Virus genome (UHGV): UHGV-0061407
Direction: 5' to 3' (one strand)
DNA length: 30,325 nt
Origin: a virus
In this document: piece after piece, positions 8,064-13,276 of the stretch
How the letters are laid out: every line of letters starts with the position of its first letter
Position numbering within the stretch: the first letter of the stretch is position 1
The notes under the pieces: generated by a model
Databases searched by the model: none
Seen by the model: the letters and a program-made list of their open reading frames with translations, nothing else
Told to the model about the DNA's origin: nothing
Position numbers and translations under genes: made by a program

Positions 8064-8404
8064 TGCGCCTCCTGCTGCTCATCGGCTATTTCTTTCAGCT
8101 TTGGCTGTCTGACGTATTGAGAGAGGATGGCGAGCACCACCAGGGCCGGGCTAATCATTGCCACAATGTTTGCAGGCAGAATATCTTTGATATCCGGCGG
8201 CAGCATCGCCCAGGCATGAAGAGCTGCGTCCGGAAATGATTGGGCCCATACACCGACCAAAGCGCCGGCAGCACCCAGGCGGACAGACCATGTTTTAAGC
8301 AGCAACCGGGCATGACCAACAAACTCCAGCCGGGTATATTTGCGCACTAGCAACAGAACCAGCACGGCCACCAGCGCCAGCAGAGCGAAAATAATCATCT
8401 TCAT
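8060..8404 (-). CDS. Lysis-cassette membrane protein (two TM segments; holin/antiholin-like or accessory)
   Basis: 114 aa between endolysin and spanins; two hydrophobic helices; start overlaps endolysin stop. Confidence 0.5.
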   Translation of the reverse strand: MKMIIFALLALVAVLVLLLVRKYTRLEFVGHARLLLKTWSVRLGAAGALVGVWAQSFPDAALHAWAMLPPDIKDILPANIVAMISPALVVLAILSQYVRQPKLKEIADEQQEAQ

Positions 8405-8943
8405 AGGCTCACCCGCTCTTTAACCCAGCCGTATAGAAACGCTTCGTTAGCCGGCCTCGCTTCGGCCAACTCAAGATAGCGAGCCCCCTGGCTGCAATTC
8501 AGCGCCTTTAGCAGCGTGGCTTCGCCATCTTTGCCACGAACGGCGAGATAACTTTTCAGGGCGGCGATGGTGAGATTGCCGATCGCGCCGTCCGTCTTCA
8601 GATCCGGATATAGCTTGCCCTGCATATTCAACGCCGTTAACCAGCGCTGCAGGAATGTACTGGCGACACGTGGCCCCATGTTCACGCCAGTATCACACAA
8701 TTCCTGTGCAATGGCTGGCGACAACTCGGCGATGCAGTCAAACTTCGGTTCTGTCCAGTATTGCGACAGATAAATTGCTTTGGCTGTATCCCGTGGTAAC
8801 GCCTTCATATCGCCGCTATAGCCATATGCGCGGGCGGTAGTCTGCGTGATACCCCAGCGCGTTGGGCCGCCTTTATCATTCGGGTTATTTACGTAACCCC
8901 CTTCTTTACCGAGGATGCCCTCGATAATCTGATCTGCTGTCAT
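8401..8943 (-). CDS. Endolysin, glycoside hydrolase family 108-like with C-terminal peptidoglycan-binding region
   Basis: 180 aa; N-terminal motif EGGYVNNPNDKGGPTRWGIT characteristic of GH108 phage lysozymes; flanked by holin and spanins. Confidence 0.85.
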   Translation of the reverse strand: MTADQIIEGILGKEGGYVNNPNDKGGPTRWGITQTTARAYGYSGDMKALPRDTAKAIYLSQYWTEPKFDCIAELSPAIAQELCDTGVNMGPRVASTFLQRWLTALNMQGKLYPDLKTDGAIGNLTIAALKSYLAVRGKDGEATLLKALNCSQGARYLELAEARPANEAFLYGWVKERVSL

Positions 8944-9251
8944 GGCTCCTTAACTCCGGTAATGCGCTCCCAGAAATAGGTCAAAGCAACAGAACCCATT
9001 GCCCCGCTAATTCCGGAAGTGGCCAGTATCATGTAAATGCTCAATCCGCTTTCAATGCTCACCAGGCCAGCAATAACGCCGGTAAACCCTGAAACCACCA
9101 TTTGGGCAAGAGCATTGATCAAGCTCCATGTTGCCTTGCTCTGCTTCACATCTATCAGGTAGCGGACAAGTCCACCCCAGCAAGCAATGATCAGCAGAAC
9201 CAGCCAGGACATCCCGGCAATGCTCTCTTTGTCTTGCATACGTTTAGCCAT
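8940..9251 (-). CDS. Holin (putative, 3 TM segments)
   Basis: 103 aa hydrophobic protein immediately upstream of endolysin with 4-nt overlap; GGAGG RBS upstream of ATG. Confidence 0.6.
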   Translation of the reverse strand: MAKRMQDKESIAGMSWLVLLIIACWGGLVRYLIDVKQSKATWSLINALAQMVVSGFTGVIAGLVSIESGLSIYMILATSGISGAMGSVALTYFWERITGVKEP

Positions 9252-9365
9252 AGTTACCGCCTCCGATGAAAGATCGGGAAGCTGTGTGTTTGAAAGGGGT
9301 CAGGCCCGTCAGGCTGGATTTAACAACGAAGCGTGTCGATGATGATTCCTGCGGGACCTGATAAT

Positions 9366-9389
9366 AAAAAAGCCATGCAAATGCATGGC
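9366..9389 (-). terminator. Intrinsic terminator (minus strand): gccatgca-aa-tgcatggc followed by U-run
   Basis: Perfect 8-bp stem 9372-9379/9382-9389; plus-strand A-run 9366-9371 gives a T-run on the minus strand. Confidence 0.45.
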
Positions 9390-9493
9390 CTTGTGATTTG
9401 AATCCGTTATTTACAAAATGTATTCGAGACAGTATCTTTCGACTTCCGGACAAAAAAACATATACCGGGACAAAATCTAAATGTAACTGCCTT

Positions 9494-9554
9494 GCCTGCA
9501 TGAAACCATGCGGGCTTTTTTTTTGCCCAAAGAAAAAGCCCACCGAAGTGGGCC
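9494..9554. terminator. Back-to-back terminator hairpins (plus-strand hairpin + T9; minus-strand hairpin ggcccac-uucg-gugggc + U5)
   Basis: Plus: stem 9494-9502/9507-9515 (one G-U), loop aaac, T-run 9516-9524. Minus: stem 9538-9543/9548-9553 with UUCG-type loop, followed by T-run (complement of 9531-9537). Confidence 0.5.
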
Positions 9555-9927
9555 TTACAGCTATCATCATTTTTTATTAGGTGTGGTGCCGGGTGCCTCC
9601 CGGTAAGTCGCCGCCAGTCCACAGACGACTCGCAATGCGCAAAAAAACATATCAGACTGGCAATGCCCCTCCGCATAGGGGGATTCACCACACGGATAAT
9701 TTAGGATGTAGTCATAGGCGGCGTCAATAACTGACACTCTGTCAAAGGCACCATTACGATGCCTTTTGCACAGTGCTAATCACTGGCTCTAATAAGGGGC
9801 CAGAGCAAAGCGATTACCCCGGCTACCAGCACTCCATCAGCCAGGATTGACATCATTTTGCTGGTGAAGTCGATAGCAACCACCAGAAACAAAAGCACCC
9901 CAGCTGCGGCCCAGCGAAGTTTACCGA

Positions 9928-10353
9928 TCACAGGTACTGGTCTAGTGGAAGTTGCAGAGCCTGGGCAATTTTCTTCAGCTGTTTCTCTTCTTCTTCCCCG
10001 ATGCCGTCGTTATCAGCTACATCAAGACACAGGCAAAGAACATCGACAGCGTCATCCGTCCCGGCAACATCAGCCAGTTCGCGCAGCGCCTGAGCGTTGG
10101 CTGAACGCGGTGATGCTTCATAGCGAGCGCGAATATTCGAACTCATCTGGGCAATTTCACCAGCAAATGGCGCGAATGCCGGGAGGGCCGAAATAGTCTT
10201 CTCCAGCACTGCAATCTCTTTTGCATCGCAGGTACCATCGGCGTATGCAATCGAGTACGCTCCCCAGACCGTGGCTTCTACGGCATCGCGGTTTTCCATT
10301 TTTTTCACTTCAACAACGGCTTTACGGGCTTTCTTTTTAAAAATACCAAACAT
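9928..10353 (-). CDS. TerB-like (tellurite-resistance TerB family) protein
   Basis: 141 aa; two repeats of the TerB-like pattern (AYADGTCDAKEIAVL and LDVADNDGIGEEEEKQLKKIAQAL) matching what I recall of TerB (a.aDG...eE...l..ia..l). Confidence 0.6.
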   Translation of the reverse strand: MFGIFKKKARKAVVEVKKMENRDAVEATVWGAYSIAYADGTCDAKEIAVLEKTISALPAFAPFAGEIAQMSSNIRARYEASPRSANAQALRELADVAGTDDAVDVLCLCLDVADNDGIGEEEEKQLKKIAQALQLPLDQYL

Positions 10354-10485
10354 AGTGACTTTCCTTTTAGCGGGTGAGCCAGCGCTCAGGAATGATCAGC
10401 CCACAGAGACAGTCACACTGACTATTCCCTATGGCTCACCCCTGAAAGGCTCTGTGGTTAAATAACGCCGAGCGTGGCGCAGATA

Positions 10486-10510
10486 CGAAAAAGGCCCGCG
10501 TATGCGAGCC
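10486..10510 (-). terminator. Terminator-like hairpin downstream of the methyltransferase gene
   Basis: 7-bp stem with one mismatch (10493-10499/10504-10510) followed on the minus strand by a T-run (complement of 10486-10491). Confidence 0.3.
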
Positions 10511-10796: not shown

Positions 10797-11876
10797 CTAA
10801 GGTAAGGGATTTGGTTGTGGTGGCCGGTGCTCCAGCAAATTACGCATTTCACTGACCGTCTGTTCAAATCTCTCGGTTTCCAGTTCGACACCTAGCCCCC
10901 TTCGCCCGAGAAGAGCAGCCTGCTTGAGCGTTGAGCCTGATCCAAAAAAGAAATCAGCTACAACATCACCCGGGCGGCTACTCGCTGTGATTATCTGCTC
11001 CAGCATATCCGCAGGCTTTTCACATGGGTGTTTACCTGGATAAAACTGAACAGGCTTATGAGTCCAGACGTCGGTATATGGCACCGTGACTGATACGCTG
11101 AATGGTCGCCGTAAACGGTAATATTCCTGCTGGAGTTCAGAATATTTTCGGCTTAACGATTGCCAGGTGGCGACAAGCTGGTGGTGAGGTTTTCCCAGTT
11201 CGTTGCGCGAGTGCTTATCCATGGCGATTTTTTGAAACAAAGCCTGCAACTTTAAATAATCGGCTTCGTTCGGTAGCTGCCACTGACTAAGGCCAAACCA
11301 GTGGGAAACCATATTTTTCTTACCTGTGGCTTCTGCAATCTGAGCCGACGTCACGCCAAGAGATTCCCGTGCATCACGGAAGTAAGAAATTAAAGGCGTC
11401 ATGACGTGTTGCTTTAACTCATTACACTTTGCGGCATATCCATCGTCTTTGGGCCTGTATGGCCCCTGATAATGGTCGGCAAAAATGATACGCTCAGTGG
11501 CAGGGAAATAAGCGCGTAAGCTCTCCTTATTGCAGCCGTTCCATCGCCCTGATGGCTTAGCCCAGATGATATGGTTGAGCAGGTTAAACCGCTCTCTCAC
11601 CAACAGCTCAATATCCGCTGCCAGGCGGTGCCCACAGAACAGATACATGCTGCCGGCAGGTTTTAACACTCGCCAGAACTGTGCCAGACAGCTATCCAGC
11701 CAACGTAAATAGTCTTCGTCCCCCTTCCATTGGTTATCCCAGCCGTTTGGCTTCACCTTAAAATAAGGCGGATCGGTAACAATAAGATCAATGGAGTTAT
11801 CGGGTAGCGATGGGAGGTATTGCAGGCAATCAGCATTGATTAAATCAATACTGGATATTTTTACAGTATTTTTCAT
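10797..11876 (-). CDS. Orphan DNA methyltransferase, beta-class amino-MTase (N6-adenine or N4-cytosine)
   Basis: 359 aa; motif IV DPPY (LIVTDPPYF) near N-terminus and AdoMet motif I (DFFFGSGST) near C-terminus, the order typical of beta-class MTases; no adjacent restriction endonuclease ORF. Confidence 0.85.
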   Translation of the reverse strand: MKNTVKISSIDLINADCLQYLPSLPDNSIDLIVTDPPYFKVKPNGWDNQWKGDEDYLRWLDSCLAQFWRVLKPAGSMYLFCGHRLAADIELLVRERFNLLNHIIWAKPSGRWNGCNKESLRAYFPATERIIFADHYQGPYRPKDDGYAAKCNELKQHVMTPLISYFRDARESLGVTSAQIAEATGKKNMVSHWFGLSQWQLPNEADYLKLQALFQKIAMDKHSRNELGKPHHQLVATWQSLSRKYSELQQEYYRLRRPFSVSVTVPYTDVWTHKPVQFYPGKHPCEKPADMLEQIITASSRPGDVVADFFFGSGSTLKQAALLGRRGLGVELETERFEQTVSEMRNLLEHRPPQPNPLP

Positions 11877-12217: not shown

Positions 12218-12320
12218 GTCTTTTACCTCAAATAAGTTGCGTGACATACAGATAACTCTGGTGACGGTATCCAGCAAGAAGTAATTGAAAGAGAAGAAGA
12301 TTTTATCGATTTTAGCCCAT

Positions 12321-12345
12321 AAAAAAACCCGCTCGCTGGCGGGTT
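12321..12345 (-). terminator. tR'-like intrinsic terminator immediately downstream of the Q-dependent promoter
   Basis: Minus-strand hairpin cccgc-cagcga-gcggg (extended by A-U pairs) followed by U7 (plus-strand A7 at 12321-12327). Confidence 0.55.
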
Positions 12346-12370
12346 AATCAACGTTGAACATACAAAGCCC

Positions 12371-12411
12371 ATCGTTATAAATAAAATTACACAAAAGCGG
12401 CAACTTTGCAA
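12371..12411 (-). promoter_or_regulatory. pR'-like late promoter with sigma-dependent pause element (qut-like region)
   Basis: Minus strand: -35 TTGCAA (12406-12411), 16-nt spacer, -10 TAATTT (12384-12389), then AACGATGGG (12368-12376), which matches the pause-inducing AACGATGGG motif I recall from lambda pR'; located within 60 nt of the Q stop codon. Confidence 0.5.
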
Positions 12412-12427: not shown

Positions 12428-13276
12428 TTATGCGATATTTATCAAATCAGACACCTTTGTCACACGTTTAAGCTGTGAGTCGGTATAACTCTCTTCCTCA
12501 AAGCATTTTGTAACCAGACTTTCATAGAAAGGTTTCCAGCTATATCGCCAGGTACGTTCTGGCAGACCAGGCAGCTCAGAGAGCATGCCCCTGTATGCAT
12601 TCGAAGACTTAGGACGACTGTAACCGCGGCCTTCACAACGTTTACATATTTTGTAGACAGGCACTCCCTGCAGCTCTGACTCTTTACGGTCCAGGGTTTT
12701 TCCCGTACCGCCACACTGACATCGCTTGCTGATTTTCCCGGTGCCGCCGCATTTGAAGCAGAGAACATGGTCAACCTCTTCCACCTGACGTTTTACTTCA
12801 AAATCCGAAGGTGACTGCCTGAGGTCTTTTGCCCATTGCGGTAATCTCATTGTGTAGTGGCTTTTTTCCACCATTGAGGTTTTTTTTATGAAGCCTGAAC
12901 CAGAACACTTCCGGCAATCTACGCTGTCAGCTGCAGACGAGGCATAGTCGTTATAAGCGAACCGAGCTATTATCAGCATACACAGCGGGAACTTCTTCCC
13001 TGCTGCTTTTCTTATCGAACGAGGCGCTTTTGATTTTGCATATTCAGCCAACCAACTGACGGATGCCTTTCTGTCATGTTCGCTGATTCCAGCTTTACCC
13101 AAAAACATTGACAGGCCTATTCCTGCCTCTGCCTGTGTCATCCCCAGAGCCGCCATTACATCTGTCACAGTAAGTTGCTCGCTGGCGGTTGCACGACCGC
13201 TATCGGAAATATGCATTCCTTTGGGCGCGAAAAATTTGGGAATTGATTCAATATTCATGCTCAGTACTCCATACAC
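12428..13276 (-). CDS. Q: Late-gene antiterminator Q (lambda-Q family)
   Basis: 282 aa; segments read as clearly related to lambda Q as I recall it: GRATASEQLTVTDVMAALGM; ARFAYNDYASSAA; zinc-finger-like CRKCSGSG and CKRCEGRGYSRP; C-terminal PERTWRYSWKPFYESLVTKCFEEES. Confidence 0.85.
   Translation of the reverse strand: MYGVLSMNIESIPKFFAPKGMHISDSGRATASEQLTVTDVMAALGMTQAEAGIGLSMFLGKAGISEHDRKASVSWLAEYAKSKAPRSIRKAAGKKFPLCMLIIARFAYNDYASSAADSVDCRKCSGSGFIKKTSMVEKSHYTMRLPQWAKDLRQSPSDFEVKRQVEEVDHVLCFKCGGTGKISKRCQCGGTGKTLDRKESELQGVPVYKICKRCEGRGYSRPKSSNAYRGMLSELPGLPERTWRYSWKPFYESLVTKCFEEESYTDSQLKRVTKVSDLINIA

Follow-up and report, generated by a model that had tools for sequence, protein, structure and literature searches.

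The lambda OOP RNA is a transcript of ~77 nt that starts at a promoter of its own, ends at a strong intrinsic terminator, runs against the direction of a phage operon, and is perfectly complementary to the operon transcript. In the early-right operon, OOP overlaps cII at its 3′ end and works through RNase III on the cII mRNA. Lambdoid phages also contain morons, which are autonomous promoter–gene–terminator insertions. In prophages of enteropathogenic Escherichia coli (EPEC) E2348/69, two Hfq-dependent small RNAs (sRNAs), PasA (85 nt) and PasC (78–79 nt), have been validated by Northern blot and RNA interaction by ligation and sequencing (RIL-seq) (PMC8550237). Both lie on the strand opposite to the flanking late genes, an arrangement denoted "> < >" (PMC8550237, table S6). 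PasD is reportedly related to STnc100 (bioRxiv 10.64898/2026.05.13.724894), which in Stx phages is located downstream of stx2 (PMC12370729). Here, we analyzed the virus genome UHGV-0061407 (30,325 nucleotides, the whole of which is called the window), which is a lambdoid prophage of Klebsiella with minus-strand late genes, and focused on a non-coding cassette of ~190 bp between STnc100 and the holin gene. We propose, with a probability of about 0.5, that this cassette is a moron in the cargo slot of the late operon and encodes an ~80-nt sRNA on the plus strand, antisense to the late operon. A previous sequence-only reading had placed a small RNA between two terminators on the minus strand (9366–9486). 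Its discrete non-coding cassette, probably encoding an sRNA, is retained, whereas its assignment of strand, promoter, and terminator is poorly supported; the better promoter-to-terminator unit is probably on the plus strand.

The arrangement of the locus is syntenic with that of an EPEC prophage. In PP2 of E2348/69, the order is DUF3927, PasD2 (STnc100-like), an esterase, PasA, a late-sense terminator, holin, and lysozyme. The orientation of PasA and PasC was confirmed from their sequences, in which the terminator hairpins and U-tails read on the strand opposite to the late genes. Likewise, the Klebsiella cassette is located in the late region, upstream of the holin gene and downstream of an STnc100/PasD-type sRNA and a DUF3927 gene, and a late-sense terminator lies between it and the holin gene. 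The RNA predicted below would also run opposite to the late genes, with a length of ~80 nt and a 3′ stem-loop followed by a U-tract. It therefore matches PasA and PasC, since position, orientation, size, and 3′ architecture agree. Homologues of PasA and PasC in enterohemorrhagic E. coli (EHEC) are EcOnc51/52.

The elements of the predicted RNA, and the minus-strand elements with which they are compared, are the following.

9410–9438, plus strand: sigma-70-like promoter, TTTACA, 17-nt spacer, TATCTT (9 of 12 matches in the consensus scan)
9445–9524, plus strand: predicted ~80-nt sRNA, antisense to the late operon, deduced from promoter, fold, and terminator
9494–9524, plus strand: intrinsic terminator, GCCTGCATG-AAAC-CATGCGGGC and then T9 (stem 9494–9515, 9 pairs, 6 of them G-C)
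9459–9486, minus strand: promoter of the sequence-only reading, TTACAT, 16-nt spacer, TATATG; weak and unsupported
9362–9392, minus strand: late-sense intrinsic terminator closing the cargo slot (stem 9392–9369, 10 pairs; ~115 nt before the holin start)

Both the plus-strand promoter-like site and the plus-strand terminator (9494–9515 with its T9) were listed by the consensus scan and had been overlooked in the sequence-only reading. As properties of a sigma-70 promoter, we took at least four of six consensus matches per hexamer, a −10 hexamer with A in the second and T in the sixth place, a spacer of 16–18 nt, and hexamers that are conserved relative to the spacer. At the sequence level, TTTACA-17-TATCTT has all of these. 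With a rough position weight matrix (PWM), it scored 11.9 bits and ranked fifth among the 302,940 configurations on both strands of the whole window. The promoter proposed earlier on the minus strand does exist as a string of letters (TTACAT at 9486–9481, 16-nt spacer, TATATG at 9464–9459) but is not convincing as a promoter and does not rise above chance. Its −35 and −10 hexamers match the consensus at two and four of six positions, respectively, and the T at −7, the last position of the −10 hexamer, is missing. It falls short of the sigma-70 properties above and was not listed by the consensus scan. The same rough matrix gave it 1.8 bits and rank 4039 of 302,940, and shifted minus-strand alternatives reached 4.0–7.1 bits.

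An intrinsic terminator was taken to be a G+C-rich hairpin directly followed by a U-run, with its pairing kept among variants on the transcribed strand. Three sites have these features: 9556–9535 on the minus strand, 9494–9515 on the plus strand, and 9392–9369 on the minus strand. Terminator-like sites are also above chance, with 8 found and 2.4 ± 1.4 in shuffles of 8500–10500. The plus-strand terminator lies 56 nt downstream of the TTTACA-17-TATCTT promoter and is tail-to-tail with that of STnc100. All nine positions of its stem pair on the plus strand only, as the T·G wobble 9497/9512 becomes a C·A mismatch on the other strand. The hairpin and U-run noted earlier at 9366–9389 are real, and the hairpin is stronger than the eight pairs described: it has 10 pairs, including 5 G-C, and a 4-nt loop (9392–9369, minus strand). 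Its U-run is UUUUUU, which follows a G-C core ending in GGC and precedes AUUAUC, and half of the run is within the 10-pair stem.

From the plus-strand promoter, transcription is predicted to start near 9445 (range 9444–9448). The predicted RNA would fold into a 5-bp 5′ hairpin with an A-rich loop (9445–9469), followed by a single-stranded A/U-rich stretch of 24 nt (9470–9493), the terminator hairpin (9494–9515), and a U9 tail ending near 9524. The minimum free energy (MFE) of this fold is −21 kcal/mol (z = −3.1), and the MFE structure accounts for 39% of the ensemble.

Variation among copies of the cassette was then compared with these predictions. By exact-pattern scans of IMG/VR and a gut metagenome with four sequence anchors, 186 copies were retrieved, comprising 69 unique variants of 9360–9560; hairpin pairing was judged on 60 unique variants. 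The plus-strand hexamers had been fixed by the scan before any variation was looked at. Among the 69 variants, none of their 12 positions is variable, compared with 17 of the 40 surrounding positions in 9393–9444, of which seven lie upstream, six within the 17-nt spacer, and four within the discriminator. For this invariance, the hypergeometric p value is 0.004, or 0.009 when a linked haplotype of three single-nucleotide polymorphisms (SNPs) is counted once. In TTACAT-16-TATATG, 4 of the 12 hexamer positions vary, without depletion (the probability of at least four is 0.16). The hairpins also differ in the strand on which pairing is kept, as given below by the share of paired cells.

9494–9515, plus-strand terminator: 97.8% on the plus strand, 88.1% on the minus strand
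9445–9469, 5′ hairpin of the predicted RNA: 100% on the plus strand, 79.3% on the minus strand
9369–9392, pre-holin terminator: 89.8% on the plus strand, 99.8% on the minus strand
9535–9556, STnc100 terminator: 85.2% on the plus strand, 96.5% on the minus strand

The strand bias of the two late-sense terminators is thus opposite to that of the plus-strand terminator and the 5′ hairpin, and both variants of the 5′ stem keep pairing on the plus strand only.

Here, we propose how the cassette would work. The sigma-70 promoter at 9410–9438 would start an RNA near 9445, which would consist of the 5′ hairpin, the A/U-rich single strand, and the GC-rich terminator hairpin with U9, giving an Hfq-type 3′ end near 9524. 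This RNA would probably be made in the lysogen, independently of Q, and would probably base-pair with host or prophage mRNAs, as do PasA and PasC in EPEC. It could also act on the Q-antiterminated late RNA, because it is perfectly complementary to the leader of the late transcript. On the other strand, the STnc100 terminator and the pre-holin terminator (9392–9362) would keep unmodified RNA polymerase out of the lysis genes, and Q-modified polymerase would read through both.

Several observations weigh against an sRNA gene on the plus strand. Promoter-like sites are near chance, with 4 in the scan and 2.2 ± 1.6 expected, and high-scoring ones also occur within coding regions of the window. The base frequencies of the PWM, which derive from promoter compilations, are approximate. 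In the predicted start region (TTCCG), the ideal distance is not occupied by a purine. A mismatch in the plus-strand terminator stem (9512 G>T, 9509 T>C, or 9514 G>T) is present in 12 of the 60 unique variants, and neither plus-strand hairpin shows a compensatory double change; because all copies are at least ~97% identical, they allow inference at the SNP level and not from deep covariation. An Rfam scan, as had been suggested with the sequence-only reading, was performed with Rfam 15 on both strands of 9150–9950 at E values up to 10 and found no family for the interval, including AgvB, AsxR, Esr41, Sok, and IsrJ/K. The best matches in the interval, BcKCsr7 (30.4 bits, gathering threshold 59) and Leu_leader (28.4 bits, gathering threshold 50), cover essentially the terminator only, and no family reaches its gathering threshold there. 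Sequence homology with PasA and PasC is absent, the local alignments (scores 21–22) being confined to the terminator tail, and a blastn search of 5,426 E. coli genomes with 9375–9535 gave no match.

The cassette behaves as a module. Its extent and that of the adjoining leader are as follows.

9363–9550: cassette, a recombining module extending between the 3′ half of the STnc100 terminator and the pre-holin U-run
9252–9361, minus strand: pre-holin leader, with a sequence conserved across phages that have different holins and terminator stems

With the cassette as query, blastn found only four phage records, all of near-identical Klebsiella phages; the cassette body is also present in more than 180 contigs of IMG/VR and the gut metagenome. 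The closest database relatives are the Klebsiella phages ST974-OXA48phi18.2, ST11-VIM1phi8.2, ST846-OXA48phi9.2, and KPP5665-2, with 97–99% identity across 9693–9200. The same body (~97–100% identical) is linked to at least four STnc100 variants and at least three downstream lysis modules, and it also occurs in a context without STnc100 (L128). Breakpoints of the module are in the STnc100 terminator and just past the U-run of the second terminator. Outward-facing terminators on both sides bound a cassette body of 101 bp. Inverted repeats flanking the module (I5 and I8) were rejected as a feature; they were judged to be low-complexity A/T runs whose order does not suit a single helix.

Conservation in diverged relatives is limited to two parts, the core of STnc100 and the sequence that begins with the second terminator's U-run and extends to the holin gene. 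Between these two parts, the DNA is replaced, often by transfer RNA (tRNA) genes, and the cassette is absent where tRNAs fill the slot. In related prophages, the slot between STnc100 or Q and the holin gene contains one or two tRNA genes, followed by a conserved stretch of ~135 nt and a terminator. The tRNA-bearing slots are listed by locus.

L002, 3373–3444: tRNA-bearing slot
L005, 2868–3021: tRNA-bearing slot
L006, 2872–3025: tRNA-bearing slot
L130, 2277–2351: tRNA-bearing slot
L158–L161, upstream of holin: tRNA-bearing slots

Three loci (L003, L004, and L005) have an additional late-sense, terminator-bounded unit of ~100 nt after STnc100. In every related locus examined, a late-sense terminator is present ~95–115 nt before the holin start with an unrelated stem sequence. 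A holin-anchored search of GTDB species genomes yielded eight loci, none with the cassette and all eight with the pre-holin terminator. In relatives, this terminator is a hairpin followed by T-run-ATTATCAGG, i.e., T-run-ATT(A/T)TCAGG, and then by the conserved leader. Because every relative has a terminator at this place, with unrelated stems, the hairpin 9392–9369 is a conserved part of the late leader and not the private terminator of an sRNA; relatives wholly without the cassette body have it as well. In three IMG/VR copies (L030, L087, and L109), the body is intact, the U-run of the pre-holin terminator is replaced, and a different downstream module follows; their hairpin is lengthened to a perfect 18-bp inverted repeat (CAAATCACAAGGCCATGC ATTT GCGTGGCCTTGTGATTTG). 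The leader itself carries the motif string CAGG..GGAATCATCATCGA..GTTGTTAAATC.AGCC.GACGGGCCTGA in the window (9252–9368, minus strand) and in L002, L003, L005, L006, L130, L159, L161, and L163, and no covariation-supported fold was found for it.

The upstream neighbor of the cassette is a described sRNA, with the following features.

9525–9722, minus strand: STnc100 sRNA (RF02076), full-length match of 99.8 bits, directly after the DUF3927 gene
9727–9698, minus strand: STnc100 promoter, TTGACG (9727–9722), 18-nt spacer, TAAATT (9703–9698); detected by the scan and third in PWM rank in the window
9535–9556, minus strand: stem of the STnc100 intrinsic terminator, 9 pairs, with a U-rich tail at 9534–9525

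STnc100 is the sole above-threshold Rfam match in the whole window (cmscan, 9722–9525 on the minus strand, gathering threshold 47). Its promoter hexamers are retained in copies whose spacers differ, GTGGTGAATCCCCC at its transcript start is common to all STnc100 copies, and its terminator shows compensatory changes among variants. The upstream terminator of the sequence-only reading (9531–9554) is borne out, with its stem at 9556–9535. Since the Rfam match spans 9722–9525, this terminator is the 3′ end of a known prophage sRNA, a point that had been overlooked. The interval 9366–9486 itself has no match to the STnc100 model at its threshold of 47 bits and does not belong to that family.

A perfect direct repeat of 13 nt, CAAAAAAACATAT, is present at 9451–9463 and 9640–9652. 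As a result, the 5′-hairpin loop of the predicted RNA (CAAAAAAACAUAU, 9451–9463) and the variable loop in the linked STnc100 (9640–9652) are perfectly complementary over 13 nt. Homology between the cassette body and STnc100 is limited to this one 13-mer, and a k-mer search for trans targets within the window gave chance-level results except for it. Coevolution of the 13-mer was considered and rejected. The two RNAs might form a convergent, tail-to-tail pair that interacts, in which the plus-strand RNA would be an anti-sRNA or antisense lock titrating STnc100, gating leak-through to the holin gene, or both. We regard this as very improbable, because the cassette also occurs with STnc100 variants that lack the 13-mer and the run lengths do not covary; if true, such a lock would add a new layer to the control of lysis timing. 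The convergent terminator tails (9512–9541) are also mutually complementary (GGGCTTTTTTTTTG / CAAAGAAAAAGCCC, 14 nt, 93%), and in a read-through RNA from either strand, an alternative hairpin could arise in competition with the two terminator stems.

The earlier statement that the unit has no open reading frame (ORF) is effectively right. Two ORFs cover the cassette, one of 108 amino acids (9244–9570, minus strand) and one of 60 amino acids (9398–9580, plus strand). Both span terminators and are frameshifted by A/T homopolymer-length polymorphisms at 9452 and 9516 among copies that are otherwise ~99% identical; the region is therefore non-coding. The small frames within the cassette are only 16–20 amino acids, are not hydrophobic, and are expected to be frameshifted by the run-length changes at the same two positions. 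The hallmark of a type I toxin–antitoxin system, an antisense RNA that overlaps a small hydrophobic ORF under conservation, was not found at the cassette, and neither coding potential nor a type I toxin was found, the frames being broken. GenBank phage records list a hypothetical protein for the 108-amino-acid ORF (e.g., QBP28630.1 in MK448237), which spans two terminators and overlaps the holin start. Very probably, this ORF was called as a gene in error, and the database annotation of a "hypothetical protein" across this non-coding region is corrected accordingly.

On the minus strand, the late region is ordered as Q antiterminator, morons, STnc100, the ~190-bp non-coding cassette, holin, and endolysin. 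The neighboring genes were assigned by Pfam.

12428–13276: Q antiterminator (PF03589), in the late region
10797–11876: DNA methylase
9928–10353: TerB-like protein
9776–9931: DUF3927 protein
8940–9251, minus strand: LydA-type holin (Phage_holin_3_3, E = 5.7e-21), first gene of the lysis cassette
8401–8943: endolysin of the GH108 family, which comes after the holin gene

The holin gene upstream of which the unit had been placed is verified by this match. Strong sigma-70-like sites on the plus strand at 11232–11260, 8312–8340, and 8158–8187 are inside the methylase and lysis genes and antisense to them; they may be spurious or antisense promoters. A second ORF-less promoter-to-terminator unit (12319–12408, minus strand) adjoins the Q gene. 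It consists of the promoter-like site TTGCAA-16-TAATTT and, ~60 nt past it, a strong terminator (12345–12326 with U7). This unit is probably the Q-proximal late promoter with a short leader RNA, comparable to lambda 6S, StxS, and IsrJ. It matched no Rfam family, and in the relative L002, Rfam isrJ is found at the equivalent position. STnc100 had at first been assumed to be the Q-proximal pR′–tR′ leader; the assumption was softened, as a separate promoter–terminator unit follows Q here.

Alternative explanations of the cassette can be divided according to whether an RNA is made and from which strand. If no RNA gene is present, the cassette would be a terminator or insulator stack, formed by the back-to-back bidirectional pair and the pre-holin terminator, and the hexamers would be fortuitous in A/T-rich DNA. 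Such a stack would prevent STnc100 read-through and stray antisense transcription from entering the lysis genes and STnc100. Tandem late-sense terminators between STnc100 and the holin gene are indeed the rule in relatives, promoter-like sites are not enriched in the region, the strong plus-strand sites in the lysis genes could need stopping, and, at such low divergence, conservation could reflect recent spread. However, relatives without the cassette do without a terminator in the antisense orientation, and ~100 bp of body moves with the terminators through several contexts. The hexamer-specific invariance (p = 0.004) and the strand-specific 5′ hairpin are unexpected for spacer DNA, and the EPEC analogue at the equivalent position is a proven sRNA. 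We regard a pure terminator stack as doubtful, although it has to be taken seriously.

An independent minus-strand sRNA of ~90 nt, started at TTACAT-16-TATATG (9486–9459) or a nearby weak promoter and ending at the terminator 9392–9362, is unlikely. The hexamers and a good terminator are present, the alternative pairs TTACAT-18-TATGTT and TGGTTT-17-TACATT reach 6.6–7.1 bits, a few SNPs improve the −10 hexamers (TATATG>TATATA, and TACATT>TATATT in two variants), and a 91-nt RNA has a fold with z = −2.2, although mostly owing to the terminator. The promoter, in turn, does not have the required combination of A at position 2 and T at position 6 of the −10 hexamer, stands at rank 4039, and varies at a third of its hexamer positions (4/12). 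Relatives lacking the body also have the terminator, its U-run is lost in three copies that keep the body, and the body has no well-defined structure on the minus strand (z = −0.86). The self-contained minus-strand unit of the sequence-only reading is thus not upheld: its promoter is weak and polymorphic, and its terminator is a shared feature of the late leader. A minus-strand RNA ending at 9366 is possible, arising from a weak promoter or from STnc100 read-through. Expression from both strands, with face-to-face promoters and starts that overlap by a few nucleotides, near 9445 (plus) and 9452 (minus), is quite improbable. Such an interfering pair would set the leak of polymerase toward the holin gene by transcriptional interference or antisense pairing. 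It accords with the outward terminators flanking the 101-bp body and the promoter-like hexamers on each strand, but the minus-strand promoter is weak and variable, and homopolymer indels exclude a toxin-like or other conserved small ORF.

The plus-strand sRNA would matter in several respects. The cassette is common in prophages of Klebsiella pneumoniae, and the names of the four deposited phages refer to clinical strains that produce carbapenemases. Should the plus-strand RNA exist, the EPEC/EHEC Pas sRNAs would have a counterpart in Klebsiella prophages at the equivalent genomic position. This would extend the view of the lambdoid late-operon leader as a hotspot of regulatory-RNA cargo able to rewire host expression in lysogens. 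In the design of these phages, a terminator shortly before the holin gene is a conserved element. A literature search for four 16–18-mers from the cassette found nothing, and the supplements of the Klebsiella differential RNA sequencing/RIL-seq paper contain no phage, holin, or STnc100 entries.

Compared with known systems, the cassette would be a new representative of a known kind, prophage late-region sRNA cargo. It brings no new principle; what it offers is a candidate that can be tested and a locus that is mapped more clearly. It differs from the PasA locus in that it directly follows STnc100, with no esterase gene between, and in its host, Klebsiella. The mature 5′ end of PasA reportedly arises by processing, whereas a primary start beside a good promoter is predicted for the Klebsiella candidate. 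STnc100 and PasD are likewise prophage late-region sRNAs bounded by their own promoter and terminator, but STnc100 is on the late-sense strand, has ~200 nt, and is conserved in structure across genera. Lambda 6S RNA, StxS of Stx phages, and IsrJ are similar as ORF-less promoter-to-terminator units in the lambdoid late region. These three are made in the sense direction from the Q-dependent late promoter and end at tR′, whereas the candidate is antisense or, in the sequence-only model, lies past a second terminator. As with morons, the cassette is present or absent between conserved neighbors and is predicted to have a promoter and terminator of its own, and relatives have tRNAs in the slot that it occupies; the cargo of the cassette, in contrast, would be a non-coding RNA and not a protein gene. 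Unlike OOP, which overlaps a coding sequence, the candidate is in the untranslated late leader and overlaps none. By analogy, the predicted RNA would work like PasA and PasC and resembles OOP as a short antisense RNA in a phage operon, while being a member of neither family.

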